Part shown: positions 1 to 48,591 of the stretch, one piece after another
How positions within the stretch are numbered: position 1 is the stretch's first letter
Layout: each line of letters begins with the position of its first letter
Origin: Acidobacteriota bacterium
Lineage (GTDB): Bacteria > Acidobacteriota > UBA6911 > RPQK01 > JAJDTT01
Reading direction: 5' to 3'
Assembly (NCBI GenBank): GCA_965209055.1
Contig: OZ242374.1
Coordinates: 4,384,001 to 4,448,000, forward strand
DNA: 64,000 nucleotides
Notes under the pieces: generated by a model
The model's input: only the letters and a program-made list of their open reading frames with translations
Databases searched by the model: none
Told to the model about the DNA's origin: nothing
Translations under genes and position numbers: made by a program

Positions 1-1925
1 CTGCCGATTACAGGCAGATCTCCCGGACCGTTCAGGAAGACTGGACTTTCGATACCGACTACGCCCGTCGCCTGCTCCTGGAACATTTTCGGGTATCCAC
101 CCTGGAGGGCTTCGGCATCAATGGACAGGGCGCGGCCGTTTCGGCCGGTGGTTCCCTGCTCCATTACGTCCGCCAGACCCAGAAGGCTCCCCTGGACCAC
201 ATCACCGAGATGCGCCTCCTGGAGACGCGAGACCACCTCAAGATCGACGAGACCAGCGTCCGAAACCTGGAACTGGTCCGCGAGCTGAACGGGGGCCGGC
301 GCTGGACCCTCCTCTCGACTCTCGATTTCACCCGAACCGCCATGGGCGCCCGCCTGTTGCGCCAACGGATCTTGCGGCCTTCCCTCGACTTGGAGCAGAT
401 CCGCCGACGACAGGACGCCGTCGCCGAATTACAGTCGTCTCTCCTCCAGATGGAGCGCTTGGGCAAGCTCCTGGATTCGATCCAGGATCTGGAGCGGCTG
501 CTGAGCCGCGTCACTCTGGGCACCGCCAACCCGAGAGATCTGGCCGCGCTCAAAACGTCCATCCAGATCCTGCCCCGGTTGGCTCCCTTGCTGGAGCAAT
601 ACGGCAGCCGGTTGCTGGAACCCCTCGAGGACACGCTGCCGGACATGGCTGAGGCGTTGGAGACTTCGCTGGCCCGCAATCCCCCCGTCAGCCTGACGGA
701 GGGAGGGATCATCGCTCCCGGCTTCCATTCCGAGTTGGACCAACTTCGCGAGATTGCCCACTCAGGCAAGTCGTTCCTGGCCAAGCTGGAATCCCAGGAA
801 CGGGAGCGGACGGGGATCCCGAGTCTCAAGGTCCGGTACAACAAGGTTTTCGGCTACTTCATCGAAGTCACCAAGACCCATGCCACTTCGGTTCCGGACC
901 ATTACGTCCGCCGCCAGACACTGGTGGGATCGGAGCGGTTCATCACTCCCGAACTCAAGGTCCACGAGGAAAAGGTCCTCCAAGCCGAAGAGCGGATCTT
1001 CGAGCTGGAACGGGACCTCTTCCTGCAGCTCCGCCGGGAGGTCGCCGCTGAAGCCGCACGGATTCAGCAGGCGGCCCGGCGCGTGGCGGAACTCGACGTG
1101 TTGCTCTCCTTGGGCCAGGCCTCCAGGAAGTACGGCTACTGCAGGCCGCAGGTCGACGACTCCTGCGAGCTGGACATCGACGAGGGACGGCATGCCGTGC
1201 TGGAGGTTCAGGACGCAGGGGAGCCATTCGTGCCCAACCCGTTGCTGGCGAACAACGAATCCGATCAGATGCTGATCCTGACCGGTCCCAACATGGGGGG
1301 CAAGTCCACCTATCTTCGCCAGAACGCCCTCATCGTCATCATGGCCCAGATGGGATCGTTCGTGCCGGCCCAGCAGGCGCGCGTCGGCCTGGTGGATCAG
1401 ATCTTCACTCGAGTCGGCGCCAGCGACGATCTGTCCCGCGGCCGCTCCACCTTCATGGTGGAGATGATCGAGACGGCCAACATCCTCAACAGCGCGACGC
1501 GAAGAAGCTTCATTCTGCTGGACGAAGTCGGACGCGGCACGGCAACGTTCGACGGGCTCTCCATTGCCTGGGCCGTCGCCGAATATCTCCTTACCGAACC
1601 GGGCCGACGGGCCCGAACCCTCTTCGCGACCCACTACCAGGAACTGACCCAGTTGGAAACGATCTACAGCGGCGTCAAGAACTACCGGGTTGCCGTGAAG
1701 GAGTCGGGGGACCGGATTCTACTGTTCCACCGAGTTCTACCGGGCGTCGCCAACAAGAGCTATGGAATCGAGGTCGCCCGCCTGGCAGGGCTGCCCAGAA
1801 GCGTAGTCGGGCGCGCGCGGGAGATCCTTTCCCGACTGGAACGCAAGGAACTCAACCTCTCGGGCAATTCCCGGCAGCCTCACGTTTCCGAGCCCTTCGA
1901 ACAGCATCAGGGGACTCTCTTCTGA
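1..1925 (+). CDS. mutS: DNA mismatch repair protein MutS (5'-truncated by window edge)
   Basis: Frame is open from position 3. Motifs: GPNMGGKSTY Walker A, STFMVEM, LDEVGRGT, FATHY, SYGIEVARLAG. C-terminal QGTLF resembles a beta-clamp motif. Confidence 0.97.
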   Translation, partial: ADYRQISRTVQEDWTFDTDYARRLLLEHFRVSTLEGFGINGQGAAVSAGGSLLHYVRQTQKAPLDHITEMRLLETRDHLKIDETSVRNLELVRELNGGRRWTLLSTLDFTRTAMGARLLRQRILRPSLDLEQIRRRQDAVAELQSSLLQMERLGKLLDSIQDLERLLSRVTLGTANPRDLAALKTSIQILPRLAPLLEQYGSRLLEPLEDTLPDMAEALETSLARNPPVSLTEGGIIAPGFHSELDQLREIAHSGKSFLAKLESQERERTGIPSLKVRYNKVFGYFIEVTKTHATSVPDHYVRRQTLVGSERFITPELKVHEEKVLQAEERIFELERDLFLQLRREVAAEAARIQQAARRVAELDVLLSLGQASRKYGYCRPQVDDSCELDIDEGRHAVLEVQDAGEPFVPNPLLANNESDQMLILTGPNMGGKSTYLRQNALIVIMAQMGSFVPAQQARVGLVDQIFTRVGASDDLSRGRSTFMVEMIETANILNSATRRSFILLDEVGRGTATFDGLSIAWAVAEYLLTEPGRRARTLFATHYQELTQLETIYSGVKNYRVAVKESGDRILLFHRVLPGVANKSYGIEVARLAGLPRSVVGRAREILSRLERKELNLSGNSRQPHVSEPFEQHQGTLF

Positions 1926-1992
1926 TTCCGGCCTCGAAACTTCAGGAGCGTCCCACCGAGGCGCCGCCGGCAGGTTCCGTGGGGACAGCAAA

Positions 1993-3594
1993 TTGAAGCG
2001 ATCCACGCTCTGCGGAATGGCATTGCTGGCGCTCCCGCTGTTCGTGTCTCTCGACACCTCCTCCGTCTGGGACTCCAACGAAGCCTTCTACGTCCAGACC
2101 CCTCGCGAAATGGTGGAACACGGGGACTGGATCGTTCCCCGCTTCAACGGCCAACCGCGGGTGAACAAGCCCCCGCTCAGCTATTGGCTGGTCGCCGCGC
2201 CCTATTCGGTATTTGGCGTCTCCATCTTTTGGGAACGGCTGATGCTGGCCCTCCTGGCCTACGCCTCGGTGTGGGCGGTTTTTCTCTCCGGTCGGATTCT
2301 GGTCTCGGAACGGGCGGCTTTGCTGGCCGCCGTCCTGTTCACCACCACCTTCCGCTTCCAGGTCCTGGCTCGACGGCTGCTCATCGACATCCTGCTCCTG
2401 TTCTGTATCCTGGCGGCGCTGACCGCCTTCCTCTACTGGTGGAAGCGGGGCCGTGGTTCAGGCCTGATCCTGGCGGCTCTTTTTCTGGGTCTGGGAGTGC
2501 TGGCCAAGGGACCGGTCATCTTCCTGCCGGCGCTCATCCTGGCCGCCTTCACCTTTTGGTCCGTGCCGTCCGACCGGTTGCGCCGGGCTCCCTGGGCGCG
2601 TTCGCTGCTGGTGTTTCTGCTGGTCGCGAGTTCCTGGTACCTGCTGCTGGGGATCACCCAAGGCTGGGACTCGGTGTCGGACTTCCTCTGGAAGGAGAAT
2701 CTGGGCCGTTTCACCCACGTGGACTTCGGACCGCAACGGGGCCTCCAATACTATCCCCTGGTCTTCCTGGCTGATTACTTTCCCTGGTCGATCCTCTTGC
2801 TCGGCGCTGTGGCCGGCAGGTGGTCCGCTCGCCGCTTCCCCGATCACAGCCTCTCCATCCTCGTCGCGCTCTGGATGGGATCGTTTCTCCTCTTCTTCTC
2901 CCTTTCTCTCAACAAGCAGGAGTACTACATCCTCCCCGTCTATCCGGTGGCCTCCCTGTGGCTGGCCGCCTGTCTGGACCGGGAGAAAATGCCCGTCTGG
3001 AGCCGGTGGCTGGTTTGCGGCGTCCTGTTCGCCGCGGCCGCATCCCTGGCCGTTGTCGCCTGTTCCCTGTTCCGGGACGTGACCGGGTGGTGGCTTCCCC
3101 TTCTCTGCCTCGCGGCGGTCGGACCGGCGGTGGCGGGATCACGGATCCGCCTGGCGGCCTGGACCTTGAGTCTCTTCTACGCTCTGGCTTACCTCGTCTA
3201 CCTGCAACCTCTGGAGGAGTACCGGCCGGTCCGTCACCTGTCGAAGATCATCCCTTCCGGGAGTCCGTCCGGAGCCCCTGTGACGGCCGGTTACTATCGA
3301 TTGTCGACTCCAAGCCTCGCCTACTACCTGAATTCAACCATTCTGGAGCTTGGCACGCCGGAACAGGCCCTGGAGGCGCTGCGAGCCCCCGGCCCCGTCT
3401 ACCTGATCATGGCCGCCGAGGACTACCCCCGGCTGAAGCGGGATCTGGGGCCGATCCTGAAAATTGAGGGAGTCCGGCCCAAGCTGTATACTACCGCCTC
3501 CACGCTCGTCGAAGGTTGGAAACGTGGCCGACTCGACATCCGTCCCGAGGCTTGGACCCGCCCCGTCTACCTGGTCAGCAACCAGGGTGGATGA
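1993..3594 (+). CDS. ArnT/PMT-like GT-C glycosyltransferase (4-amino-4-deoxy-L-arabinose transferase-like)
   Basis: EAFYVQTPREM..GDWIVP..NKPPL.YW and LAKGP motifs; many transmembrane segments. Confidence 0.85.
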   Translation: MKRSTLCGMALLALPLFVSLDTSSVWDSNEAFYVQTPREMVEHGDWIVPRFNGQPRVNKPPLSYWLVAAPYSVFGVSIFWERLMLALLAYASVWAVFLSGRILVSERAALLAAVLFTTTFRFQVLARRLLIDILLLFCILAALTAFLYWWKRGRGSGLILAALFLGLGVLAKGPVIFLPALILAAFTFWSVPSDRLRRAPWARSLLVFLLVASSWYLLLGITQGWDSVSDFLWKENLGRFTHVDFGPQRGLQYYPLVFLADYFPWSILLLGAVAGRWSARRFPDHSLSILVALWMGSFLLFFSLSLNKQEYYILPVYPVASLWLAACLDREKMPVWSRWLVCGVLFAAAASLAVVACSLFRDVTGWWLPLLCLAAVGPAVAGSRIRLAAWTLSLFYALAYLVYLQPLEEYRPVRHLSKIIPSGSPSGAPVTAGYYRLSTPSLAYYLNSTILELGTPEQALEALRAPGPVYLIMAAEDYPRLKRDLGPILKIEGVRPKLYTTASTLVEGWKRGRLDIRPEAWTRPVYLVSNQGG

Positions 3595-4585
3595 GCCCCA
3601 ACCGAGACTGTCCATCATCGTTCCCGTCTACAACGAGAAAGCCAACCTGGCGGACCTGTACCAGGGTCTGACCGAGGTGCTCCAGGGGCTCGGGGTCGAC
3701 TACGAGATCCTGTTCATCGATGACGGAAGCAACGACGGAGGGACGCGGATCCTGGCGGACCTCGCCGAACAGGACGACCATGTCCTGGTCTTGCAGTTCG
3801 CCAGGAACTTCGGCCAGACGGCGGCCCTCTCGGCCGGTTTCGACCATGCCCGGGGCGAGATCATCATTCCCATGGATGCCGATCTCCAGAACGATCCCGC
3901 CGACATTCCCCAGATCCTGGACAAGCTCGACGAGGGGTACGATGTGGTCAGTTGTTGGAGAAAGGACCGGCAGGACCCGTGGTTGACCCGCATCCTCCCC
4001 TCCCGGGCCGCCAATCGAATCATCAGTTGGATCAGCGGCGTCCGTCTCCGCGACTACGGATGCACCCTCAAGGGCTACCGGAGCGAATTTCTGCAACATA
4101 TCCGGCTCTATGGAGAAATGCACCGGTTCATTCCGGTCTACGCGAGCTGGACCGGCGCCAAAGTGACCGAGATCCCGGTCCGCCATCATCCCCGGCGGCA
4201 CGGACGATCCAAGTACGGCCTCCTGCGGACCATCAAGGTTCCTCTGGACCTGATGACCGTCAAGTTTCTGGTCACCTATTCCACCAAGCCCATGTATCTC
4301 TTCGGCGGACTGGGACTGGTCTCGATCCTCTTCGGGTGGCTGCTCAGCGCGCTCGCCCTCTACCAGAAATTTCTTCAGGATGTGAAGGTCCACCGCAACC
4401 CCCTCCTCCTGCTTTCGGTGTTCCTCTGCATCGTCGGAATCCAGTTCATTCTTTTCGGTCTGGTGGCGGAGCTCATCATTCGGACGTACCACGAATCGCA
4501 GGGCAAGCCCACCTACATTCTCAGCCGGACGATCCGAAAGGAACAGGAATCCCGTTCGCACTCGGCCGGTTCGGCCCCGGAGTAA
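3587..4585 (+). CDS. GT2 polyprenol-phosphate glycosyltransferase (ArnC/GtrB-like)
   Basis: SIIVPVYNE, DDGS, RNFGQ, MDADLQNDP motifs; two C-terminal TM helices; GTG start overlaps the upstream stop. Confidence 0.9.
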   Translation: MDEPQPRLSIIVPVYNEKANLADLYQGLTEVLQGLGVDYEILFIDDGSNDGGTRILADLAEQDDHVLVLQFARNFGQTAALSAGFDHARGEIIIPMDADLQNDPADIPQILDKLDEGYDVVSCWRKDRQDPWLTRILPSRAANRIISWISGVRLRDYGCTLKGYRSEFLQHIRLYGEMHRFIPVYASWTGAKVTEIPVRHHPRRHGRSKYGLLRTIKVPLDLMTVKFLVTYSTKPMYLFGGLGLVSILFGWLLSALALYQKFLQDVKVHRNPLLLLSVFLCIVGIQFILFGLVAELIIRTYHESQGKPTYILSRTIRKEQESRSHSAGSAPE

Positions 4586-4589
4586 TCTC

Positions 4590-6047
4590 ATGCAGGTTTT
4601 GGATTGGCTGCTGACGAACACGACGACGGTCTCGGGCTGGATCTGGGGCCTCCCCATGATCGTGCTCCTCTTCGGCACCGGGCTGCTCCTGACTGCAATG
4701 ACCCGCTTCGTTCAAATCCGTCATTTGGGCAGCTCGATTCGGCGGATTCTGAAGGGACCCCGGGCGAAGACCCGGGACCAGCAGCGCTCCCAGGGAGACA
4801 TCACACCGTTTCAGGCCCTGATGACCGCCCTGTCGGCCACTGTGGGCAACGGAAACATCGCCGGTGTTGCGACGGCCATTGCCGCCGGCGGACCGGGAGC
4901 CGCCTTCTGGATGTGGGTCACCGCCGTCTTCGGAATGGCCACCAAGTACTCGGAGGCCGTTCTGGCCATCCTCTTCCGCCGCCGCATGCGGGACGGAACC
5001 ATGGCCGGCGGGCCCATGTACTACTGCCGGGACGGCGTCCGGGGGCAGCTCGGTTTCGTCCTGGGGGGCGTCTTTGCCGTGTGCGGCGCGGCGACCGCGC
5101 TTCTGGGGACCGGAAACATGTTCCAGTCCCAGTCCATGGCCATGGCGGTCCGCGAGCAGTTCGGAACCCCTCAGTGGGCAACTGGCCTGGTCATGAGCCT
5201 GCTGGTGGGGCTGGTAATCATTGGCGGCATCCGCCGCATCGGGGCCGTCGCCGAGCGCCTGGTTCCGGTGATGATCATTTTCTATTTTTCCGGAGCGTTG
5301 CTGGTGATCATCAGCAATATCTCGCTGGTTCCGGATGCCTTCCGCCTGATCGTGGTGTCCGCCTTCAGTCCCGAGGCGGTCTTTGGGGGAGGCGTGGGGA
5401 TCGGAGTTCAGCAGGCCATGCGATTTGGAGTGGCCCGCGGCGTCCTCTCCAACGAGTCGGGCCTGGGAAGCGCGGCCATCGCCCATGGAGCCGCCCGGAC
5501 TCGATACCCCGTCGTCCAGGGCGGCATCGCCATGATGGGCACCTTCATCGACACCATCATCGTCTGCACATTGACGGCTCTGGCCATCACCGTCTCCGGA
5601 GCGTACCGCAGCGCCTCATTCCTGGTGGAGGACGGTCTCCGGGGAGCCGACCTCACGGTCCACGCGTTCGCCGTGGGCATGCCCGACTGGACCGGAGGGT
5701 GGGGCGGCCTGGTCGTCGCCTTCGCTTCCCTGATCTTCGGGTTCACCACGCTGATCGGATGGAGCTACTACGGTCAGATCTGCTGCGAGTACCTCTTCGG
5801 CCTGAAAGTCGTCAAACCGTACCGGGTCCTCTTCGTGGTGCTCCTGTTCGCGGGAGCGCTGCTCACGGGACGCTATTCCTCCATCATCACCAACGTGGGA
5901 GACATCTGTAACGCCGCAATGGCATTTCCCAATCTCATAGCGCTGATCTTACTGAGCCGCCGGGTCGCGGACGTCACGCAGGAGACCTACGTGGCGGGAG
6001 ATCCATACGCGGCCCGGGTGCCCAAGCTGCCGGATCCTATCGGTTAA
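4590..6047 (+). CDS. Alanine/glycine:cation symporter (AGCS family)
   Basis: ATVGNGNIAGVATAI..GGPGAAFWMW, GGPMYY and SNESGLGS motifs. Confidence 0.93.
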   Translation: MQVLDWLLTNTTTVSGWIWGLPMIVLLFGTGLLLTAMTRFVQIRHLGSSIRRILKGPRAKTRDQQRSQGDITPFQALMTALSATVGNGNIAGVATAIAAGGPGAAFWMWVTAVFGMATKYSEAVLAILFRRRMRDGTMAGGPMYYCRDGVRGQLGFVLGGVFAVCGAATALLGTGNMFQSQSMAMAVREQFGTPQWATGLVMSLLVGLVIIGGIRRIGAVAERLVPVMIIFYFSGALLVIISNISLVPDAFRLIVVSAFSPEAVFGGGVGIGVQQAMRFGVARGVLSNESGLGSAAIAHGAARTRYPVVQGGIAMMGTFIDTIIVCTLTALAITVSGAYRSASFLVEDGLRGADLTVHAFAVGMPDWTGGWGGLVVAFASLIFGFTTLIGWSYYGQICCEYLFGLKVVKPYRVLFVVLLFAGALLTGRYSSIITNVGDICNAAMAFPNLIALILLSRRVADVTQETYVAGDPYAARVPKLPDPIG

Positions 6048-6092: not shown

Positions 6093-7040
6093 TCAGGAGG
6101 AGGGGGACCGGTCGGACGCTCTGGGCGGCAATCCAGCCGCCTCGACGATTTCAGCCACCAGCTCCTCCTGCCGGTACGCCATGATGTGGACTCCGCTGAT
6201 TCCGGGAATCTCCCGCGCCTCCCGGATGATCTCGACGCAGATCCGCATTCCTTCGCGGCGCTGACGATTGCCCGGAACTCCCTTCAGACGACGGATCACC
6301 TCGTCCGGGATCACCACTCCCGGAACATTCTTCCGGATCCATTGAGCCGCCTTGGCCGAGCGCAGGGGACCGACGCCCAGCAGGAAAAAGACCTTCTCGT
6401 GCAGGCCCAGGTCCCGAACCGAATTCATGAAGCGGCGAAGCCTGGGCATGTCGAAACAGTATTGGCTCTGGATGAAGTCCGTCCCCGCCTCGATCTTCTT
6501 CATCAGCCGGAACGGACGGTAGTCGTAGGGGGGAACGAAGGGATTGCTGGCGGCCCCCAGGAAAATCCGGGGATTGGATTCCAGCTTCCTGCCGCTCAGG
6601 AAGCGGCCCTCGTCCCGGAGCAGGCGGGCCGTTCTCAAAAGAGTCATGCAATCCAGATCGAAGACCGGCTTGGCATCCGGATGGTCTCCCACTCCCACTC
6701 CGTCGCCCGTCAGGCACAAGACGTTCCGGACTCCCAGGGCCGCGGCCCCCAGCAGGTCTCCCTGAATGGCGATGCGGTTCCGGTCCCGGCAGGCGACCTG
6801 AAGCACCGGCTCGTAGCCGGCCCTGACCAGCAAGGCACAGACGGCGACGCTGGACATATGGACGTGGGCCCCGGAAGCGTCGGTGGCGTTGATGGCGTCG
6901 CACACCGGCGCCAGGACCAGCGCCCTTTCGACGACCGTTTCGGGGTCTGCGGTGTCGGGGGAGTTGATCTCGGCGGTGACGGCGAAGCCACCCGAGCGAA
7001 GCACCCGCTCCAACCGTGAGCCCGATTTCAAGGGATTCAC
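6093..7040 (-). CDS. metF: Methylenetetrahydrofolate reductase, MetF subunit
   Basis: AINATD, CRDRNRIAIQ, LCLTGD, KIEAG.DFIQSQ and GVHIM motifs. GTG start at 7040 overlaps the MetV stop (GTGA). Confidence 0.88.
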   Translation of the reverse strand: MNPLKSGSRLERVLRSGGFAVTAEINSPDTADPETVVERALVLAPVCDAINATDASGAHVHMSSVAVCALLVRAGYEPVLQVACRDRNRIAIQGDLLGAAALGVRNVLCLTGDGVGVGDHPDAKPVFDLDCMTLLRTARLLRDEGRFLSGRKLESNPRIFLGAASNPFVPPYDYRPFRLMKKIEAGTDFIQSQYCFDMPRLRRFMNSVRDLGLHEKVFFLLGVGPLRSAKAAQWIRKNVPGVVIPDEVIRRLKGVPGNRQRREGMRICVEIIREAREIPGISGVHIMAYRQEELVAEIVEAAGLPPRASDRSPSS

Positions 7041-7489
7041 CGCTTCCAATGGGGACCTGCCTTTTCGCCTTCGGAGAAGTGATTGATCCAGGCGGACGAC
7101 CCTTGGCGGTCGTAACTCAGCGGTGGCAGTACGTGCAGAATCTCGGAACCGAAGCGGGGCATCTTTCCGGACCGTTCCCAAGCCTGTACCCAGACGCACG
7201 GCATTTCAGGAACGACCTCGCAATGCCCATTGGGCCGCACCCCGCCACAGGGTCCGTTGCGGAGATTCTTGGGACAGGTCATGGGACAGGTCATCCCGGT
7301 GCTGTGCAGGACGCATTGACCACACATGCGACAGTCGAAAACGGCGCCCTTGGTCAATCGCTCCGCCGGAATCAGGAACCGTTCGAACCGGCTTCCGGGT
7401 TTGAGCCGGGAACGGAACAGTCCCAGAATCTTCACACTTAGAAGATAGATCGACTCTAAAATTTGAGGGTGATTCTGAAGGAATCTCAC
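7037..7489 (-). CDS. metV: MTHFR C-terminal-domain Fe-S protein (MetV-like)
   Basis: DCRMCGQC..CPMTCPKNLRNGPCGG..HCEV..PCVW cysteine pattern; GTG start preceded by GGAG. Confidence 0.85.
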   Translation of the reverse strand: MRFLQNHPQILESIYLLSVKILGLFRSRLKPGSRFERFLIPAERLTKGAVFDCRMCGQCVLHSTGMTCPMTCPKNLRNGPCGGVRPNGHCEVVPEMPCVWVQAWERSGKMPRFGSEILHVLPPLSYDRQGSSAWINHFSEGEKAGPHWKR

Positions 7490-7508
7490 GGTTCTCCGCT
7501 GCCCTCGT

Positions 7509-9146
7509 TCAACTCTGTGGAACCGAATCCAATTGCGCCGGCATGGCCTGGAACAGACATCCTTCCACAAAAATATCGAAGAAGTCCTCGGTCGTCTCCA
7601 ACTCGATGTGTTCAACTCGCCTGACCATTTCCTCGAGGCGGCGCCTGAGCGTCCGGCTGGTCAACATGAGCGTGGCTCCCTCGAGCGCGCTGTTCCCCAC
7701 CTTGGCGATGCGGCCTTGGGGAAGGGGTGGGATAAACCCGATGGACATGGCGTTGTCCACGTTGACGTAATTGGCGAAGCCCCCCGCCAGGTAGAGCCGC
7801 TTGAGCTGAGCCGGCGAGATCCCGTACTTCCTCAAAACGATCCACTGACCCGAGTAATTGGCGGCCTTCGCCTGTGCCAGGGCGCTGATGTCGGCCCGGG
7901 ACAGGAAAATCCCGCGTTCGCCCGGAATGGTGAACCGGTCCAGTCCACCGGCAAGAACACCCAGGTAGTTCATGTCCTCGACCCGAAGCAACTCCGCCAG
8001 GAGATCGATCAATCCTGAACCGCAGATCCCCTCCGGAGCGGCTCCGCCGATGGTCCTCCAGATCACCTCTCCGTTCCGGAGTTCCACCGACTCGATGGCG
8101 CCTTCGTATCCGGGCATGCCGAAGGTGATCTCACCACCTTCAAATGCGGGTCCCGCCGGGCAGGAAGCGGCCATCATCCCATGGCGGTTGCCGACCACTA
8201 CTTCGGTGTTGGTCCCCACGTCGACCAGCATGACCACGTCTTCTTCCTGGTCCATCCCCACGGCCAGAAGGTCTGCGGCCACGTCGGCGCCGACATGGCA
8301 ACCGATCAACGGCCCCCCGTAGAGGTTGGCCGCGGGATGGACTCTCAGCCCCAGGTCCCGGGCCTGGAAATTCAGGACGGTGTCGGCTCTTTCGCCCCGT
8401 TCCATTTCCAGTTGGGTGGCCGATTGGTACGGTTTTTCGCCGATGGATTGGATGTCGAGGCCGAAAAACAGGTCACGCATGGCGGCGTTCCCCACGATGA
8501 CGACCTCGTAGATCTGGCGCCGCGGCACCCCCGTCAATCGGCTCAGCTCCCGGATCTCGTAGTTGAGCCCGGAAATCACCGAGCTATGAAGCTCCCCCCG
8601 GTAGGGTCCGCCATCATAGGAAATCCGGCGCATGATGTCGCTTCCGCCGAATCTCTGCGGGTTTTCGAACGAGGCGGTGTGAAGGACCACGCCGTTTTCA
8701 AGATCCACTAGATTGAGGGCGACGGTCGTCGTCCCCAAGTCGACCGCAAGGCCGTAGATCCCGCCCCGGTAGGTATCGATGGTACTGCCGTCAAAAACGA
8801 CATTCGCCCCTTGGAGCCGCGTCAGGGGCTCGACGGGGGCATGACGGCGGACCGTTTGGGTCAGGATCCGCGGACGTCGGCGCAGCAGGGCAAATTCGAT
8901 GGTGGCGTCGGCATCCAGGACCTGAGCCTGACAGGCCAGGCGATAGCCCTCACGGAGAAACTCCTCCGTCTGGGTGGCGGCGGTCAGCGCTTCCCCGCCC
9001 CGGACGATCTGCACGATGCACTCGTGACACTCTCCGCTCCGGCGGCAGGAGGTGGGGACCCGCACCTGAAGGTCATCGGCGTAGTCGAATACGGTCCTGC
9101 CGGGGACCAGATCCAGCTTGCGGTCACCGTAGTGGAGGGGGGACAT
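7509..9146 (-). CDS. ATP-dependent reductive activator of corrinoid protein (RACo/AcsV-like; 2Fe-2S plus ASKHA)
   Basis: N-terminal CRRSGECHEC..RLACQ; DLGTTT, NPQRFGG, DVGTNTE, AGPAFEG, GICGSG and LAGGF motifs. Confidence 0.9.
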   Translation of the reverse strand: MSPLHYGDRKLDLVPGRTVFDYADDLQVRVPTSCRRSGECHECIVQIVRGGEALTAATQTEEFLREGYRLACQAQVLDADATIEFALLRRRPRILTQTVRRHAPVEPLTRLQGANVVFDGSTIDTYRGGIYGLAVDLGTTTVALNLVDLENGVVLHTASFENPQRFGGSDIMRRISYDGGPYRGELHSSVISGLNYEIRELSRLTGVPRRQIYEVVIVGNAAMRDLFFGLDIQSIGEKPYQSATQLEMERGERADTVLNFQARDLGLRVHPAANLYGGPLIGCHVGADVAADLLAVGMDQEEDVVMLVDVGTNTEVVVGNRHGMMAASCPAGPAFEGGEITFGMPGYEGAIESVELRNGEVIWRTIGGAAPEGICGSGLIDLLAELLRVEDMNYLGVLAGGLDRFTIPGERGIFLSRADISALAQAKAANYSGQWIVLRKYGISPAQLKRLYLAGGFANYVNVDNAMSIGFIPPLPQGRIAKVGNSALEGATLMLTSRTLRRRLEEMVRRVEHIELETTEDFFDIFVEGCLFQAMPAQLDSVPQS

Positions 9147-9260
9147 GGCAGCGCAATTTCCCGCGCCAGCGCGACGCGGGCGCGATGGCAGGTTCCTTTA
9201 GAGAAAATGGTCGCGGAATCCGGTCAGCCAGCAGCGTGTGGTCCGAATCGCCACCGGCTG

Positions 9261-9512
9261 CTAGGTTTCCCAGGCATCCCGATAGTTCAGATCGTCGCTT
9301 CCGGTGCAGAGAGGCAACCCTTCGGAACCGGGACGCCGGAACTGGTTTCGGCAACCGAAACGGGCGGTGCAGCGATCTCGGGCATCCTTGTAGGGACACC
9401 GCCATTTGGATACGAGGTTGGCCGTTTCGCCGATCTGCCGGTAGATCTCCCAGAGGCGATCCATGCTGGCTTTGAGTTTCGCCTTGTCGACAGGTCGGAA
9501 GTTCCGGGGCAC
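9261..9512 (-). CDS. Small 4-Cys protein (83 aa), putative metal/Fe-S binding
   Basis: C-x8-C-x5-C-x14-C pattern. Fills the gap between the corrinoid protein and RACo on the same strand. GTG start is inferred. Confidence 0.65.
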   Translation of the reverse strand: MPRNFRPVDKAKLKASMDRLWEIYRQIGETANLVSKWRCPYKDARDRCTARFGCRNQFRRPGSEGLPLCTGSDDLNYRDAWET

Positions 9513-9558
9513 GTCTGTTCGCGACACTGGCCTGCATCCGTCGGGGAGGCGCCTCAAC

Positions 9559-10326
9559 TCAAGAATAGTCGGAGACGGCTTGCTGCGGCGTTTCCTGCCC
9601 GGTACCCACAAATTCCTTGGCCTTTTCCACACAGGCAATGGCGTCCTTGCCATAGCCGTCGGCCCCCATGTCGTCAGCGAACTCCTGGGTCACCGGAGCT
9701 CCACCCACCATGGTGCTGACGACATCTGTCAGACCCGCATCTTCCAAGGCCTGGATGGTCCGTCCCATGTTGGGCATGGTCGTCGTCAAAAGGGCGGACA
9801 TCCCGATGACCTGGGGTTCGAATTCGAACACCGCATCGACAAACTCGTCCGGCTTGGTATCGACGCCCAGGTCGTGCACGACGAAACCGGCTCCCCGGAG
9901 CATCATGATGCACAGATTCTTTCCGATATCGTGGAGGTCTCCCTTGACGGTTCCCATGACCACGGTGCCCACGGGTGGAATATCGGAAGCGGAAAGGATG
10001 GGCTCGATATGCGCCATACCGGCCTTCATGGCCCGGGCTGATATCAGCACCTCCGGAACGAAGATGATGTTGTCCCGGAATTTGATCCCCACCAGGGCCA
10101 TGCCGGCAATCAGCCCGTCATCCAAAACCGTATTGGCGGCGTACCCAGTGTCCAGAGCCTCTCTCGTCAGGCGGTCGACTTCGTGCTGGTTGCCGGTGAT
10201 CAGGGCGTAACTGATGTCCTGCATCAATGGATCGGCGTTCCGGAAGAGCGATTTGATGTGCTCTCGCTCGTTCCGGCGAGCCACGTGCCGGAGTTCCCTG
10301 GTCAGGCCCTCGTTGATCTGCGACAT
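9559..10326 (-). CDS. Corrinoid (B12-binding) methyltransferase cognate protein
   Basis: Cap domain GM..VG.KF...IFVPEVL; DxHxxG motif GDLHDIG; SALLTTT; MVGGAP. Confidence 0.92.
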   Translation of the reverse strand: MSQINEGLTRELRHVARRNEREHIKSLFRNADPLMQDISYALITGNQHEVDRLTREALDTGYAANTVLDDGLIAGMALVGIKFRDNIIFVPEVLISARAMKAGMAHIEPILSASDIPPVGTVVMGTVKGDLHDIGKNLCIMMLRGAGFVVHDLGVDTKPDEFVDAVFEFEPQVIGMSALLTTTMPNMGRTIQALEDAGLTDVVSTMVGGAPVTQEFADDMGADGYGKDAIACVEKAKEFVGTGQETPQQAVSDYS

Positions 10327-10384
10327 GCCGCTATTACCACCCAATCACTGAATTTGACAGACGCCAAGGCGCACTAAGGGGGAA

Positions 10385-10418
10385 ATTAAACCTTTTCGGG
10401 TCGAGGTTTGTCAAACCT
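10385..10418 (-). promoter_or_regulatory. Putative internal sigma70 promoter with a palindrome over its -35
   Basis: Minus strand reads TTGACA-18-TTTAAT. The palindrome AGGTTTG-N-CAAACCT lies at 10404-10418. Confidence 0.45.
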
Positions 10419-10441
10419 GCTACCGAACGGGACAGGGGTCG

Positions 10442-11488
10442 TCACGGCCCGGTCAACCGGCCATCCCGCCACGCCTGAATGTAGTTCATGCAGAAATCGT
10501 CCCGGCCCAGAAGCATGTCGCGGGCCAGGCCGACTCCCTCCGAATCCAGGTCCAGGGCGAACACGTCCTGGACGCGATTCTGGACCGGATCCATGATGGC
10601 GGCGTCGATTCCGGCCTCCAGACTCAGGTGAATGAAAGTGGCGTTGATCAGTTTCCGGTTGGGAAGACCGAAGGAGACGTTGCTCAACCCGCCCGTGACG
10701 TGCACGTCATTGCCGAAACTCGTTCGGACCTCCCGGACGGCATCCAGAAAATGACGTCCAAAGTCGCGCGAGACCGATATCGGGAAGACCAGGCAATCGA
10801 TGAATACGTCGTCCAGAGGGAATCCCCGTTTGACAGCCGCCTCCATGACCTGTTCCACGTTGGAGACACGATCGTCCGCGCTCTCCGGCATTCCGTCCTT
10901 TCCGGCGGCCGTCACGATCATGCGGGCATCGTTTTCCTGGACCAGATCCAGGGTCTCCAGCCGTTCCAGAGCGACGGAATTGACCAGTGGGCGGTCCGAT
11001 CTCCGGGTGTGCGCAGTCAATCCCGTGGCGATTATTTCCGCGTTGGAAGAATCGATGCTGAGAGGCAGGTCCGTCATTCCCTGCACTCTCTCCACGAGCC
11101 AGGTCATGGCTCGCTTCTGGACCTTGATGTCGTAGGAGACTTCGTCGACGTTCAGATCCAGAAAATGGGCGCCGGCGGTTTCCTGGCGGCGAACCTCGAA
11201 TTCGATGTAGGCGCTCCCCTCTTCCTCCTCCACGGGATCGCCACTGATCCCCTTCTGGACCGCGATCATGAAATGCTTGATCTGACCCTGCTCGTAGGGT
11301 TGAGTCTTCTTGGCGCTCTCCGGCACCCGGAGGTATCGGCGCTCACCGGGACTGGGGTCGAAAAAGACGGCTTCGGCTCCGTCGGGCGTCGTCGCAGTCC
11401 TTATGCCATTCCGCAAAACGATGCGAGTGGTATGGATATTTTCGCCGATGATGATCAGATCGCCGGAGTCAGTCACGAGCTTTGACAT
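10442..11488 (-). CDS. Methyltetrahydrofolate:corrinoid methyltransferase (AcsE/pterin-binding DHPS fold)
   Basis: IIGENIH, LDLNV, LSIDS, LVNS and GGLSNVSFG motifs; ATG at 11488. Confidence 0.85.
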   Translation of the reverse strand: MSKLVTDSGDLIIIGENIHTTRIVLRNGIRTATTPDGAEAVFFDPSPGERRYLRVPESAKKTQPYEQGQIKHFMIAVQKGISGDPVEEEEGSAYIEFEVRRQETAGAHFLDLNVDEVSYDIKVQKRAMTWLVERVQGMTDLPLSIDSSNAEIIATGLTAHTRRSDRPLVNSVALERLETLDLVQENDARMIVTAAGKDGMPESADDRVSNVEQVMEAAVKRGFPLDDVFIDCLVFPISVSRDFGRHFLDAVREVRTSFGNDVHVTGGLSNVSFGLPNRKLINATFIHLSLEAGIDAAIMDPVQNRVQDVFALDLDSEGVGLARDMLLGRDDFCMNYIQAWRDGRLTGP

Positions 11489-11508
11489 GGAATACCCGAT
11501 TGGGCGCG

Positions 11509-12546
11509 TCAGGCGTAGTGGTCCCGGCACCAGTCCTTGACCGCCCTCGGAATTTCGATGAGGTTTTCCAGTTTGGTCGCCAGGGGAATGGCACACTCGG
11601 GGGAGATCATGTCGACGCCCGCCGCCATGCATTCGTTGACGGCCGCTCGGACCTCCTCCGGACTCCGGCTGTAGAGGAGTTCCGGGTTGTTCAGATTCCC
11701 CACCAGGCGGATCCGCCCGGAAGCGATCTTCATGGCTTCGGCAGGGTTGTTTTTGGAATCGAAGTGGAAGCAGGCCAAACCGGACTGTGCGATGTATTCG
11801 AGGCGGTCCAGCGTCTGGCCGCAGATGTGGAGAATGAGCGGGCACGGGATTCGCTCACGCATCTCCTTGTGGATCTCCAACAGGAACCTGCGGTAATACT
11901 CACCGCTCACCAGGTCGCCCGTGGCATGATCCGGAAAGGTGAGCGCATCGGCGCCGGCTTCGATCTGGGCAACGGAGAACGCAACCGAGATTTCCTTGAG
12001 CCGATCCAGGCAGAGCATGGTCATTCCCGGATCGTCGATGCTCATGAGCAGAAACTTTTCCACGCCGAAGACGTGATAGGCCAGCGTCCATGGCCCCATG
12101 GCCTTGCCGATGATGGCCACCTCGTCTCCATACTCCTTTTTCAGGATTCGGAGCGCGTCCAGGACACACATGTTGTCCGGATGAGTCAGGAAGTCCTTCG
12201 GCATGTGGATGTCGTCCGGCCCCGACCAGATCGGTTGGTTCATCCGTACCGTGGGCCAGTTGTCCTTGACCTCCCATTGCATGTCGCATCCCAGGGCGGA
12301 AGACTCCTGGATAATGGTGAAAACGGGCATGATGCAGTCGTAGCCCAACTCAGTGTATCCCGTTGCCGCCAGGCGCGCGTTGAGCTCGGCGTCACGGCAC
12401 GCATCCGGAAACGGCGCGTCCACCAGATCCATGAGTTCCACGGTGGCGACGTTGGTCGGATTGCAGACCGGCGGACGATCCACCGGCTTGCCGGCCAGCG
12501 CGTTCATCACCCGCTCTCTACCGGTCATGGTCTCCACGAAAGGCAT
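11509..12546 (-). CDS. MtaA/CmuA-family methyltransferase (URO-D fold)
   Basis: MTGRERV..AL, GPWTLA, AGAD, Zn ligands LHIC and SPEC, LVGNL. Confidence 0.88.
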   Translation of the reverse strand: MPFVETMTGRERVMNALAGKPVDRPPVCNPTNVATVELMDLVDAPFPDACRDAELNARLAATGYTELGYDCIMPVFTIIQESSALGCDMQWEVKDNWPTVRMNQPIWSGPDDIHMPKDFLTHPDNMCVLDALRILKKEYGDEVAIIGKAMGPWTLAYHVFGVEKFLLMSIDDPGMTMLCLDRLKEISVAFSVAQIEAGADALTFPDHATGDLVSGEYYRRFLLEIHKEMRERIPCPLILHICGQTLDRLEYIAQSGLACFHFDSKNNPAEAMKIASGRIRLVGNLNNPELLYSRSPEEVRAAVNECMAAGVDMISPECAIPLATKLENLIEIPRAVKDWCRDHYA

Positions 12547-12564
12547 ACCGTTTACTCCTTGCGA

Positions 12565-13239
12565 TCAAAGAGGGCTGAAGCCCGCGGTTCCGGTGGTGAG
12601 CTGACCTCTTTGGGCCGAACTCTCCAACATGTTCTCCACGGCGCTGATGTTTCGGGAGTAGGGGAACAGGAGCCGAACCAACGGTTCATGACGGTATCCA
12701 CAACTGAAGGCGACACCGAAGTTTCCCACTTGCTCCATCTCGCCGTACTTTCGAAATCCCATCACGATGGCACGCAGGCGAAAAGGAGCGTTGCGCGCCT
12801 CCCCTTGAGCCGAGATCTGGTAGACCCAACGATTCTCGGAATAATGCGGCGTGAGCTTCAGGGTCAAGGGACTCCGAGTATCCTTAAGCACCATCTCACC
12901 CGTGGGATGAGCATAGTCGGGAGGCTTTTCAACGGCTTGCGGCATCAGAAACTTCATTGGCCGGAAATGGAGTAGTCCGCAGGGGAATCGAACCTGGTTC
13001 CTGGTGCCTTCGACAGCATCCAATCCACCCAGATTGCAAAGTTGGTCGCGGATTCTCTCGATCCGGTCCTCGACGCCCAGCTTCCTGCTGTAGGTCCAGA
13101 CGGTAAAGATACCGTCTTTCTCATAGAGTCCGACGGTGATGTTGTGGAAATGCGGATCCATGGGAACCAGCTCGACACAGCGCCCATAGCGCTCGATCGT
13201 CTCCTCGACGTGGGAAAGCTCGCCGTTCGTGCCCCTCAT
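12565..13239 (-). CDS. Hypothetical protein with a duplicated FxCGxxH motif
   Basis: 224-aa ORF with ATGA overlap to the upstream gene; contains VRFPCGLLH and VAFSCGYRH. Confidence 0.75.
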   Translation of the reverse strand: MRGTNGELSHVEETIERYGRCVELVPMDPHFHNITVGLYEKDGIFTVWTYSRKLGVEDRIERIRDQLCNLGGLDAVEGTRNQVRFPCGLLHFRPMKFLMPQAVEKPPDYAHPTGEMVLKDTRSPLTLKLTPHYSENRWVYQISAQGEARNAPFRLRAIVMGFRKYGEMEQVGNFGVAFSCGYRHEPLVRLLFPYSRNISAVENMLESSAQRGQLTTGTAGFSPL

Positions 13240-13658
13240 GACGAAATACTCCCGGAGGGTTCGGATGATGAATCCTCACTGATCCAACGCTCCAGCGCAC
13301 CGGGACGCTCATCCCGCTGACCTGCACGGTGAAGCCGGCAAATCCGGGCCGCCAGATCTTCAGGAAGTCCCCGATTGAATCTCCCGGCCATGTCTTGAGC
13401 CAGGCGCCGGGGATTTCCAGTGGCGCGCCCGTGATCCAGCCACTCCCAGCCCTCCAGATAGGCGTCGCTCCCCATGCTCCCCTCGAACATGGCGACGGCG
13501 TCCACCGCCTCCTGGAACCGGTGGTCCAGCATCTCGGAAACCCGATCGCCGCCGGCTTCGACTTGGACCTGAACCGGGATCTCTTTCCAATACAGCACTC
13601 GGATTCTGGCCACGGTTTCCGCTCCTGCGAGAGATGATCCGGAGTCGACTGTCGCCAC
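13236..13658 (-). CDS. Virulence_fact (CvfA-like) family small protein
   Basis: VLYWKEIPVQV..RFQEAVD..AM...SDAYLEGW signature. Confidence 0.75.
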   Translation of the reverse strand: MATVDSGSSLAGAETVARIRVLYWKEIPVQVQVEAGGDRVSEMLDHRFQEAVDAVAMFEGSMGSDAYLEGWEWLDHGRATGNPRRLAQDMAGRFNRGLPEDLAARICRLHRAGQRDERPGALERWISEDSSSEPSGSISS

Positions 13659-13818
13659 CCGCCGGGAATGTCAGGCTACACCAGTGCCAGACACCCTGTA
13701 AAGCCCGTCACAACTGGCAAATCCCGGTTCCAGGCCGTGGACGGAGGAGAGTCGCAAAGTCTCGGATACGCCCATCCCCTTCTTGACTTGGTCCGAGCCA
13801 CTTCCGCAAAATGTGGAC

Positions 13819-14676
13819 ATGGATGTCTACGAGGAGATCGTCCGTCTCCGGCGCGAGGGCAGCTCGGGCGCACTGGCGACCATCGTTCGCCGCTTGGGGA
13901 GCACTCCCCGCAAAGACCATGCCAAAATGCTGGTCCGCCAGGATGGCAGCTTTGTGGGCACGGTGGGCGGTGGCTGTGTCGAGGCCGAGGTCTGGCGGCA
14001 TGCCAACCAGGTCATGGAGAGTGGCCGGGCCACTCTGGTCAAATACGAATTGACCCAGGAAGACACGGAAAACGAAGGTCTGGTCTGCGGTGGCACCGTG
14101 GAGATCTTCATCGAGCCCGTGATCCCCGAGCCCACTTTGATCCTCATGGGCGCCGGCCATTTGGGACAGGCCATCGCCGAGGCCGCCGAACGGGTCGGCT
14201 TTCAGGTCGTTGTCCTGGATGACCGGGAGTCATTCGCCAATCGAGAGCGTTTCCCCCGGGCCCAGGAGGTGATCGTGGACTCCTTCCGGACGGGCCTCTC
14301 GCAAACATCCGTCACCGTCAACACCTTCATCCTGGTCATCACGCGCGGTCACAGCCATGATCATGCGGCCTTGGAACAGGCCATCCGGACCGACGCCCGA
14401 TACGTGGGACTGGTGGGGAGCCGCCGCAAGATCCAGTTGATCGTAGAGCACTTGCTTGAGCAAGGGTATGACCCCGACCGGTTCAAGAGGCTCTACGCCC
14501 CCATCGGCCTGGCCATCGGGTCCGAGACGCCGGAGGAGATCGCCATCAGCGTCGTGGCTGAATTGATCGCCATCCGAAAGGGCGTTCATGAACGAAATCA
14601 CAAGCAGCGTTTCGTTCAGAAAATCCTGGACCGGGCCAGAATGAAGTCCGCTCCGGTCCGGGTCGCCGCCGGGTAA
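13819..14676 (+). CDS. XdhC/CoxI-family molybdoenzyme maturation factor
   Basis: GSTPR..AKM, GTVGGGCVE, CGG.VEIF, GAGH, TRGHSHD, YVGLVGSRRK, PIGL.IG.ETPEEIA motifs. Confidence 0.92.
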   Translation: MDVYEEIVRLRREGSSGALATIVRRLGSTPRKDHAKMLVRQDGSFVGTVGGGCVEAEVWRHANQVMESGRATLVKYELTQEDTENEGLVCGGTVEIFIEPVIPEPTLILMGAGHLGQAIAEAAERVGFQVVVLDDRESFANRERFPRAQEVIVDSFRTGLSQTSVTVNTFILVITRGHSHDHAALEQAIRTDARYVGLVGSRRKIQLIVEHLLEQGYDPDRFKRLYAPIGLAIGSETPEEIAISVVAELIAIRKGVHERNHKQRFVQKILDRARMKSAPVRVAAG

Positions 14677-20786: not shown

Positions 20787-21667
20787 GCGCCCACGAGCAC
20801 CTTGCAGGCGTAGCCGAAGGCGTGATCCATCTTGCGGACGTTGTACTTGAAGCAGGACTCCGCCAGATAGAGCGGCATGTACTTGTTCGAGTAGTGGTGA
20901 TGTGTCCCGTACCACGCTCTCTTGACCAGGGACCAGAACCCTTCAATCGTGTTCGTATGCGTGAGCCCGTCCACGAACTGGCGAGAGTGATTGATGACGG
21001 CGGACCGGACCGTTTCCCGGACCGCCTTGTATCCCTTGAACTCGTCCGTGATGAGCAGCGAGGCGTCATGGTCCAAGTAGGCCCCGACGAACTTGGAGAT
21101 CGCGTTGGACGTGAGGCGGTCCGTGGGCTTGGCAATGACCTTGCCGCCGCGCTCCACCATCCCGATCACGGCGGTTTTCTGTGTACCGCGGCCACGCTTG
21201 GCCTTGCGGATCGGCTTCCGGTTGTTGCCGGGCCGGGGCTTTCCTCCGACATAGGTTTCGTCGGCTTCGACGATCCCATAGAGCAGCGAGCGTTCCAGTT
21301 CGCTGTCCATGGCAACGCGAATTCGGTGCATCATGCTCCAGACCGTGGGTCGGCGGATGCCCAGGTCGCGGGAAATCTGGCACGCGCTGGCGGACTTCTT
21401 CGCGTTGAGCATCAGGCCCAGGACGAGGAACCAGTCTCGGAGCGGCTTGTGAGTGCCGTGGAAGATTGTTCCCACGGTGACGGAGAAGGTGCTTTTGCAA
21501 TCGCGGCACTGCCAGCGGCGCATGGCGCGGTCAGAACTGGCGTGTGTCCCGCAGGCCACGCTGTCGCAGTAGGGGCAGGTCGGCTGGCCGTTCCACCGGA
21601 CTTTCTCCAGGTATTCGACCGCTTGTTCCTGCGTCTTGAAGGAGTAGAATAGCGTGATGATGTTCAT
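20783..21667 (-). CDS. IS1595-family DDE transposase
   Basis: Zn ribbon CPYC..CRDC, HTH, VEADETYVGG, ITDE, HTNTIEGFW..KR motifs; SD GGAGGT before the ATG at 21667. Confidence 0.95.
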   Translation of the reverse strand: MNIITLFYSFKTQEQAVEYLEKVRWNGQPTCPYCDSVACGTHASSDRAMRRWQCRDCKSTFSVTVGTIFHGTHKPLRDWFLVLGLMLNAKKSASACQISRDLGIRRPTVWSMMHRIRVAMDSELERSLLYGIVEADETYVGGKPRPGNNRKPIRKAKRGRGTQKTAVIGMVERGGKVIAKPTDRLTSNAISKFVGAYLDHDASLLITDEFKGYKAVRETVRSAVINHSRQFVDGLTHTNTIEGFWSLVKRAWYGTHHHYSNKYMPLYLAESCFKYNVRKMDHAFGYACKVLVGA

Positions 21668-21684
21668 TGACAACCTCCATGCAC

Positions 21685-36684: not shown

Positions 36685-36885
36685 GTGGCCTCCTTCACAA
36701 CATTGTCGCTGTTGGCAGGTGTTTCCCACCCACTATAGAGCCTGTTTCGATTACCTTGCAAGCCTTCGGCGGCGGCAAAATCTGCCCGCCGCACGAACCG
36801 GGACGCACTGCCTCCCGGAGGCGCAATGGAAACGCAAAAAGTCTGGACGATCCCGAAAGGAAAAGGCGGATGCAGCTGACCAGCC

Positions 36886-48588: not shown

Positions 48589-48591
48589 CTG

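Follow-up and report, generated by a model that had tools for sequence, protein, structure and literature searches.

In the 64-kb window of acidobacterial DNA studied here (the whole stretch that was analysed, from contig OZ242374.1), a run of nine genes, all on the minus strand and spanning positions 6093-13613 among the open reading frames (ORFs) of the window, encodes what would be a split hub for cobalamin-dependent methyl transfer; the region as originally noted is 6093-13658. Three aspects of this system are new. Namely, it contains a core that is conserved in two bacterial phyla and consists of an enzyme of the MtaA/CmuA family (hereafter MtaA-like), a 224-residue protein without a Pfam or NCBIfam family (U224), a corrinoid carrier protein and a small protein with four invariant cysteines (Cys4); the second methyltransferase that accompanies this core switches by phylum; and MtaA-like and U224 are predicted to form a pair. 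The reading that we favour, and to which we give somewhat less than an even chance, is that the MtaA-like:U224 pair loads the corrinoid protein from an activated methyl donor, and that the methyl group is then passed to tetrahydrofolate (THF) and the methylene-THF reductase MetVF in the organism at hand, and to homocysteine in Dehalococcoidia.

The conserved core and its second methyltransferase

A scan with a U224 profile over one genome per GTDB species matched 342 stretches, 307 of which encode a relative. The best 80 of these 307, 25 from Acidobacteriota and 55 from Chloroflexota (mostly Dehalococcoidia, including a SAR202 bin), were examined over 10 kb around each relative, their contents being determined by tblastn with the window proteins and a homocysteine methyltransferase from Dehalococcoidia; some misses in the counts that follow are due to contig ends, as in locus L005. 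The cluster arrangement recurs in all 80 loci and in both phyla, and in this respect the search for synteny across GTDB that the original prediction had proposed came out positive. U224 is found in 80/80 loci, MtaA-like in 79/80 (at 68-96% identity), the corrinoid protein in 75/80, Cys4 in 74/80, the small protein Vir in 58/80 and the RACo-type activator in 50/80, and the conserved core is made up of the first four of these. The second methyltransferase, on the other hand, depends on the phylum. In Acidobacteriota it is a folate-side enzyme, the pterin-binding methyl-THF:corrinoid methyltransferase (MeTr), present in 24/25 loci and accompanied by MetV and MetF in 22/25. In Chloroflexota MeTr occurs in just 3/55 loci (L042, L075 and L079) and MetV and MetF in 0/55, while a homocysteine methyltransferase of family PF02574, found in 0/25 acidobacterial loci, is present in 53/55. 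The gene for this homocysteine-side enzyme sits immediately upstream of U224, as part of the same gene string as the core, and the models that it matches best are PRK07534 of the BHMT/MtgE type (about 249 bits against a cut-off of 338), PRK08645 and MetH. Given such regularity, the notion that the nine genes are chance neighbours with no joint function is one to which we assign practically no weight: it is contradicted by synteny, with the same one-strand order in two phyla, two 4-bp overlaps and short gaps.

Beside the constant MtaA-like enzyme, exactly one other methyltransferase is present in 77 of the 80 loci, which is most simply explained if MtaA-like:U224 loads the carrier and the variable enzyme then takes the methyl group off it. 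In the mechanism that we propose along these lines, the 255-residue corrinoid protein would hold the methyl group on its cobalt, and RACo would use ATP to regenerate Co(I) after accidental oxidation. The Zn-dependent MtaA-like enzyme would work as a heteromer with U224, whose invariant Cys21 and conserved tail would be placed at the Zn site, and this pair would be the substrate-side enzyme that methylates Co(I) from an activated donor. In the acidobacterium, the methyl group would then move from the carrier to THF through MeTr, and the resulting methyl-THF would be converted by MetVF to methylene-THF, thus reaching the one-carbon (C1) pool, while in Dehalococcoidia the same loaded carrier would methylate homocysteine to give methionine. 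The substrate-side role had already been assigned to the MtaA-like enzyme in the original prediction. As judged from the sequences, the pair is the only candidate in the cluster for a methyltransferase I (MT-I), or third arm, with a putative activity, and the presence of one other methyltransferase in each lineage form fits this role as well; the direction of methyl flow, just like the substrate, is something that we infer, whereas the gene content, its conservation, the exchange of the second methyltransferase from one phylum to the other, the conserved zinc ligands and the modelled interface come from the data themselves.

Could MtaA-like:U224 itself be a homocysteine-methylating module, and the acidobacterial operon a novel split methionine synthase leading from methylene-THF to methionine? 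The operon does hold everything that a MetH-type system needs except PF02574, a family with no match among the 60 scanned ORFs of the window; separate pterin-binding, B12-binding and RamA-like proteins, as found in split cobalamin methionine synthases, are all there. The accessory protein DUF1638 has no Pfam match among the scanned ORFs of the window or of eleven relative loci. RamA-like activators are known to serve split MetH (PMC5764234). Moreover, Zn enzymes of the MetE family take methyl groups from corrinoid proteins, and one of them requires a partner protein. Namely, the core methionine synthases MesA-MesD are of a related fold, and MesD depends on a partner of unknown fold; they belong, however, to the MetE C-terminal family and come with no dedicated corrinoid protein or RACo operon (PMC7857596), whereas the Pfam family of MtaA-like is URO-D. 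What is more, such a module would be redundant in 53 of the 55 Chloroflexota loci, in which a MetH-type enzyme stands next to an MtaA-like protein that is 68-77% identical to the one studied here. For these loci, the link to methionine synthesis, named originally as an outcome that would overturn the prediction, is partly realised, the core being paired with a MetH-type enzyme; in the 25 acidobacterial loci, no PF02574 gene was found within the 10 kb examined. All in all, we consider a new homocysteine module improbable; it is a special case of the thiol methylation discussed further below.

The MtaA-like enzyme and its predicted partner

The gene for the MtaA-like enzyme (11509-12546, minus strand) encodes 345 residues, which match URO-D of Pfam at 226 bits and, with 263.5 bits against a curated cut-off of 235.4, belong to the MtaA/CmuA family TIGR01463 of NCBIfam. 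The methanogen equivalogs are both missed, with 224 bits against a cut-off of 400 for MtaA_Meth and 195.2 against 600 for MtbA. Of the relatives with a solved structure, MtaA from Methanosarcina mazei scores best (4ay7, E 4.9e-48), and residues H240, C242 and C318 align with its His-x-Cys...Cys zinc ligands and are invariant in 17/17 orthologues. An exhaustive search of 1.84 billion cluster representatives yielded 2613 matches at E<=0.001, and among the matches listed the nearest full-length non-orthologues are 41-49% identical. The zinc positions are widely kept in the family, with H in 79, C in 77 and C in 79 of 80 non-orthologues. Position 50, on the other hand, is an invariant Cys in the orthologues, as opposed to His in 67/80 other family representatives, and Cys50 is a possible specificity determinant.

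To place the enzyme within its family, a tree was built from 80 full-length sequences out of 150 matches listed (70 fragments or partial matches were dropped) and the 17 orthologues; 81 representatives had been labelled with NCBIfam, one of which, P0154, was then excluded. In this tree (FastTree, LG+gamma, midpoint-rooted), which carries no support values and no characterised CmuA, MecE, MtsA or MtpA and whose placements are therefore coarse, the orthologues cluster tightly at the end of a long stem, with Acidobacteriota and Chloroflexota as separate subclades. Among the members of their sister group is P0140, which is naturally fused to a corrinoid domain, and the two groups together lie in a different superclade from the MtaA equivalogs (P0239, P0243 and P0267) and the MtbA equivalog (P0208). 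The phylogeny suggested in the original prediction thus gives the enzyme a clade of its own, apart from the MtaA and MtbA equivalogs, with NCBIfam labels serving as references in place of CmuA, MtsA and MtpA sequences. A labelled CmuA reference was also sought in a plasmid collection, where the 15 records retrieved were all UroD/HemE-like and 26-29% identical.

For U224 (12565-13239, minus strand), 276 of 377 candidates qualified as relatives at E<=0.001. The 120 matches listed are 211-296 residues long and 55-100% identical, contain no Pfam domains, and are either unnamed or called 'hypothetical'. Invariant in their alignment are C21 and two CGxxH motifs (C87/H91 and C180/H184), and the C-terminal tail around residues 211-221 is conserved as well. 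The AlphaFold2 model of U224 is confident, with a predicted local distance difference test score (pLDDT) of 85 and a predicted template-modelling score (pTM) of 0.82, and displays two alpha/beta repeats. Comparison of this model with PDB folds gave 0 matches at E<=0.001 (best E 0.066, template-modelling score 0.15), the U224 profile had no match among PDB sequences (best E 0.12), and the ESM Atlas contained no usable match. One apparent fusion of U224, the 520-residue P0271 with a PF02574 domain, was set aside: it holds only U224 residues 107-213 after a garbled stretch and was taken to be a frameshift artefact.

When modelled together, MtaA-like and U224 gave complex scores of 0.89, 0.89 and 0.90 in three runs, while the best of three controls reached 0.02; the runs share at least 73% of their contacts, and the pLDDT of the partner is at least 87. 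In calibration, 116 of 157 solved complexes attained the mark for this score, as against 2 of 215 mismatched pairs, a calibration which is only rough with our own alignments as used here. The predicted interface brings C242 and C318, two of the enzyme's Zn ligands, together with residues 19-21 and 209-221 of U224, the CGxxH motifs lying outside it, and the model thus supports binding of U224 to MtaA-like at its Zn site. In this way, the 'unknown partners' which the original prediction had suspected for the enzyme gain a concrete, if modelled, candidate.

The same interface can be given a different meaning. In particular, MtaA-like:U224 could have an accessory, repair, regulatory or relay role in which no metabolite is processed, for instance by stripping wrong alkyl groups from the carrier to a sacrificial thiol, or U224 might be a lid or a substrate protein that receives a methyl group on Cys21 at the Zn site. 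It is true that the C21 region and the tail of U224 contact the Zn ligands C242 and C318 in the complex model, that wrong alkylation of corrinoid proteins is documented (PMC13222342), and that split MetH needs accessory proteins of obscure role, such as DUF1638 (PMC5764234). However, there is no precedent for an enzyme of this kind, the interface list does not identify a metal-touching residue of U224, and the complex score is a measure of model confidence and not a measurement, and we regard this alternative as a long shot. An even bolder and, in our view, still less probable version is that U224 serves as a protein methyl relay: its Cys21, placed at the Zn site along with the conserved tail, would be reversibly S-methylated, such that the hub would exchange methyl groups with a protein thiol and not with a free metabolite, with Cys4 and Vir perhaps acting as additional stations or as the machinery for loading.

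Whatever their roles, which we likewise infer, these two small proteins are taken here as conserved accessory parts. Cys4 (9261-9527, minus strand, 88 residues) has no Pfam or NCBIfam family, but its alignment, with 24 invariant columns that include the four Cys, and its position, always between the corrinoid protein and RACo, indicate that it is a real gene. Its AlphaFold2 model (mean pLDDT 63, pTM 0.39) is confident for the N-terminal helix 15-40 only; comparison with PDB sequences gave no match, and its matches in the ESM Atlas are confined to unnamed clusters from Chloroflexota and Acidobacteriota. Vir (13236-13613, minus strand, 125 residues) matches PF13769 'Virulence_fact' of Pfam at 53.9 bits, and its stop overlaps the start of U224 by 4 bp. 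Its GTG start was set by alignment with 11 relatives, the open frame itself running to 13658. Vir had no match among PDB sequences either, and no longer, fused forms of it were seen among 1460 candidates, which is weak evidence.

The possible methyl donor, the direction of transfer and related systems

If MtaA-like:U224 indeed loads the carrier, what could the donor be? Transfer of a methyl group from methyl-THF to a thiol is strongly downhill. It should further be noted that transfer from a thioether to Co(I) is unfavourable (10.1101/548461). Because of these two facts, a plain methyl thioether can hardly be the acidobacterial donor, and an activated donor is needed. Consequently, of the two types of donor originally put forward, methylated sulfur compounds and methyl halides, transfer from a plain methyl sulfide to THF is thermodynamically unlikely, whereas a halomethane is our first guess, by analogy with CmuA, and a sulfonium or other activated compound the alternative. 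MecE and CmuA are the family precedents for halomethanes, and donor-side action is described for CmuA, MecE and CdmB, all of the MtaA/CmuA family or the UroD fold (10.1101/2021.08.30.458270; PMC13222342), as well as for MtpA, an MtaA-fold enzyme (10.1101/548461).

As for the system as a whole, it had been described as an acetogen-style module. The core of an acetogen-type demethylase, i.e. a corrinoid protein, a pterin-binding methyltransferase II and a RACo-type activator, is indeed present, but the module is not specifically acetogen-like, and its closest analogue would rather be the split methionine-synthase and glycine-betaine hub of Ruegeria (PMC12478193). In the hub of Ruegeria pomeroyi and Phaeobacter inhibens, composed of MtgB, MtgC, MtgD, MtgE, a RamA-like protein, DUF1638 and MetF2, the corrinoid protein is loaded either by a substrate-specific enzyme or with the methyl group of methyl-THF, which it hands on to THF or homocysteine (PMC12478193; PMC5764234), and a metF paralogue beside the pterin enzyme oxidises methyl-THF (PMC12478193). 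The present system shares with it the separate corrinoid protein, the pterin-binding methyltransferase with the adjoining metF paralogue, and the RamA/RACo activator, together with, in the Chloroflexota relatives only, the homocysteine module; that one carrier serves several methyltransferases and that accessory proteins of obscure role are required can be counted as further likenesses. On the other hand, the substrate enzyme of that hub is of the MttB family, while here it is a Zn enzyme of the MtaA/CmuA family with U224 as its predicted partner; DUF1638 is found there, and Vir, U224 and Cys4 here; and the genes are dispersed there and clustered here.

Other systems resemble the present one on the substrate side. 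Both Cmu (CmuA, CmuB) and Cdm (CdmBCA) combine an MT-I of the UroD fold or the MtaA/CmuA family with a corrinoid carrier and a methyltransferase yielding methyl-THF, without MttB, MtaB or MtmB (PMC13222342). However, CmuA unites in one fused protein the methyltransferase and corrinoid parts that are here encoded by separate genes (11509-12546 and 9559-10326), CdmB contains no Zn and belongs to an O-demethylase branch, and U224, Cys4 and Vir appear in neither system. The mec cassette of anaerobic dichloromethane catabolism likewise combines MecE, of the MtaA/CmuA family, with the corrinoid protein MecB, the RACo-type activator MecH and MecG, a small protein whose function is obscure (10.1101/2021.08.30.458270), but its enzyme on the side of THF or tetrahydromethanopterin, MecF, is of the MtrH family and not a Pterin_bind protein, and its sensor kinase and regulator (MecA/MecD), extra methyltransferases MecC and MecI and antiporter are not in this cluster. 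Methanosarcina MtsA and MtpA are MtaA-fold Zn enzymes that shuttle methyl groups between a corrinoid and a thiol or thioether, their role in vivo being on the donor side (10.1101/548461); they are, however, archaeal and coupled to coenzyme M (CoM) instead of THF, face unfavourable loading from a thioether, and have no reported partner like U224. Finally, type 1 mlp clusters, whose substrate is an unspecified sulfur or selenium compound, occur in non-methanogens and combine MtaA-like enzymes with a corrinoid protein and an activator of the RACE type (PMC10418091), but they have at least two different Mlps (Mlp2 and Mlp3), no THF methyltransferase, and reside in strict anaerobes that are mostly Firmicutes. 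Here, one MtaA-like enzyme, the only URO-D-family gene in the cluster, is combined with MeTr, and a weak second UroD-like gene is present in only 3/80 loci. In other words, the system works like the Mtg hub and like Cmu, Cdm and mec, but belongs to none of them, and in the literature searched no description of the U224 family, the Cys4 family or this module was found.

That said, a number of points weigh against donor-side action of MtaA-like:U224. The easy direction in the MtaA family is from methyl-cobalt to thiol (10.1101/548461); the Zn ligands that are invariant in MtaA-like are typical of thiol-activating enzymes; and the conservation of the protein is very strong, with a mean column identity of 83% across two phyla. 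If the complex model is right, the presence of U224 at the Zn site might prevent the corrinoid from docking. The nine-gene cluster contains neither a transporter nor a regulator, and the search for folD, fhs, purU, formate dehydrogenase and acs genes, most of which had been suggested originally as a genome-wide check, found none in the 64-kb window to which it extended. The halomethane guess, for its part, draws on family analogy alone. In Chloroflexota, furthermore, the neighbourhood looks biosynthetic rather than catabolic, with a threonine synthase equivalog upstream in eight loci and a PGDH-like dehydrogenase, at least 45% identical to the L014 query, in approximately 17. Lastly, the components of the Ruegeria hub are dispersed across the genome, as evident from locus tags (PMC12478193), and with such scattering possible, the absence of MeTr from the Chloroflexota clusters is no proof of its genome-wide absence.

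The direction, the zinc site, the conservation, the biosynthetic neighbours and the scattering of components would all suit a thiol-methylating hub, in which MetVF reduces methylene-THF to methyl-THF, MeTr transfers the methyl group to the corrinoid protein, and a thiol or sulfide accepts it at the Zn site of MtaA-like:U224. In the Chloroflexota form, a MeTr from elsewhere in the genome would have to load the carrier, both the homocysteine enzyme and MtaA-like:U224 would unload it, and the acceptor could be sulfide, methanethiol, a low-molecular-weight thiol or a seleno compound. The characterised soluble CoM methyltransferases run in this way, with the reverse being unfavourable (10.1101/548461), an Mlp of a type 1 mlp cluster methylated selenide and sulfide in vitro (PMC10418091), and a distant family member, P0233, is a natural fusion of MtrH-like and MtaA-like parts. 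What is more, the full methyl-supply chain for it is at hand in MetVF, MeTr, the corrinoid protein and RACo. Nevertheless, 52 of the 55 Chloroflexota clusters would then carry two acceptor enzymes and no donor enzyme, no candidate gene for thiol biosynthesis is seen nearby in the window and the relative loci scanned, and the need for U224, Cys4 and Vir would be without precedent. We consider a hub of this kind unlikely, while thiol methylation in all its forms, including the new homocysteine module weighed above, deserves a somewhat higher share of our belief, below that of the donor-side hub, of which it is the main rival.

Why does the choice matter? With each new substrate arm of corrinoid systems, a further part of C1, sulfur or halogen cycling has come into view, and the arm proposed here, with MtaA-like, U224 (a protein without known fold) and two undescribed small proteins, occurs at 307 places in the genomes of GTDB species, linked either to the pool of folate-bound C1 units or straight to the synthesis of methionine. 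Knowing its substrate would tell how abundant and mostly uncultured groups gain or dispose of methyl groups. Should the donor be a halomethane or a sulfonium compound, this would name an enzyme for a sink for which known genes offer only a poor explanation. The predicted MtaA-like:U224 heteromer is a directly testable starting point in this regard.

Layout and surroundings of the cluster

After refinement of the gene starts by alignment with relatives, 4-bp overlaps are found at two junctions (Vir/U224 and MetV/MetF), the remaining gaps being 18-115 bp, which agrees with the co-oriented genes and stop/start overlaps described originally; the domains named at the time were all recovered with Pfam and NCBIfam, and the corrinoid module is complete, with carrier, THF-side methyltransferase, ATP-dependent activator and MetVF. 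MeTr (10442-11488, minus strand, 348 residues) is AcsE-like, with 76.5 bits for PF00809 and 211.5 bits, below the cut-off of 259, for PRK07535, while an MtrH-family model gives only 20.6 bits. The Pterin_bind match spans residues 98-299 of 348 only, starting from profile position 26, and within the N-terminal approximately 95 residues an insertion seems to follow the first strand. The corrinoid protein (9559-10326, minus strand, 255 residues) contains the B12-binding domains PF02310 and PF02607 (B12-binding_2) and has MtgC_2 as its best NCBIfam match (198 bits, below the cut-off of 370). The RACo/RamA-type ATP-dependent corrinoid activator (7509-9146, minus strand, 545 residues) carries the Pfam domains Fer2, Raco_middle and RACo_C_ter (accessions PF14574/PF17651/PF00111) and reaches 311.9 bits with the AcsV model, whose cut-off is 800. 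MetV (7037-7489, minus strand, start codon approximate), the small Cys-rich subunit, matches PF12225 (DUF5981) at 93.8 bits, and MetF (6093-7040, minus strand), whose start overlaps the MetV stop by 4 bp, matches PF02219 (MTHFR) at 109.3 bits and, best within NCBIfam, the MTHFR half of PRK08645 at 207.9 bits; the adjacency of MTHFR and a DUF5981 Cys-rich subunit is that of a MetVF-type reductase. Two long antisense ORFs over the cluster (10628-11485 and 11482-12975) have no Pfam match.

As stated originally for the cluster, substrate enzymes of the MttB, MtaB and MtmB families are missing, with no match among the 60 ORFs scanned in the window. A riboswitch search in the window and 11 loci returned two tRNAs only, and nothing upstream of the clusters. 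The nearest loci are from metagenome-assembled genomes of Acidobacteriota, in keeping with the original assignment to a probable Acidobacterium, and they also have in common the flanking XdhC and Sua5/YrdC genes. The XdhC-type maturation factor lies beside the cluster at 13783-14676, and at 33897-36729 a plus-strand ORF of 715 residues with no Pfam match abuts a minus-strand Fer2_2 2Fe-2S subunit of the xanthine/aldehyde oxidoreductase type; this ORF may be a wrong-strand call over the true large subunit. Elsewhere in the window, a DNA methylase (N6_N4_Mtase with an inactive restriction endonuclease-like domain) adjoins an IS1595-family transposase at 19317-21673 on the minus strand, and a small mobile element has probably inserted there. 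The window also has a hydantoinase/oxoprolinase A and B pair at 46753-50712, and Hydantoinase_B is also found near the cluster in the Dehalococcoidia locus L016 (4331-6118), probably by coincidence.

Among the relative loci, many of those from Chloroflexota have 1-4 kb of unrelated genes between U224 and MtaA-like. This insertion hot spot holds, in L022 (10682-13277) and L030 (10693-14669), a toxin-antitoxin-like DUF433/DUF5615 pair, a DUF4268 protein, a DNA methylase and an aspartyl-protease-like ORF. A 2-hydroxyacid dehydrogenase is linked in 26 loci at 30-100% identity, but it was not used as a clue, scoring under every NCBIfam cut-off and being ambiguous between PGDH and glyoxylate reductase. 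A methylamine or sarcosine context was also considered as a general clue and dropped, as it was found at one locus out of 80: directly upstream of MetVF, L014 carries at 31-5593 soxA-like and soxB-like alpha and beta subunits of sarcosine oxidase, a GcvT-like protein and a type III glutamine synthetase. Finally, the divergent second UroD-like gene mentioned above (URO-D 68.7 bits) occurs together with a second corrinoid protein, 1-3 kb downstream of RACo, in L017 (16525-18470), L026 and L065, and the two may constitute another substrate arm that uses the same activator.

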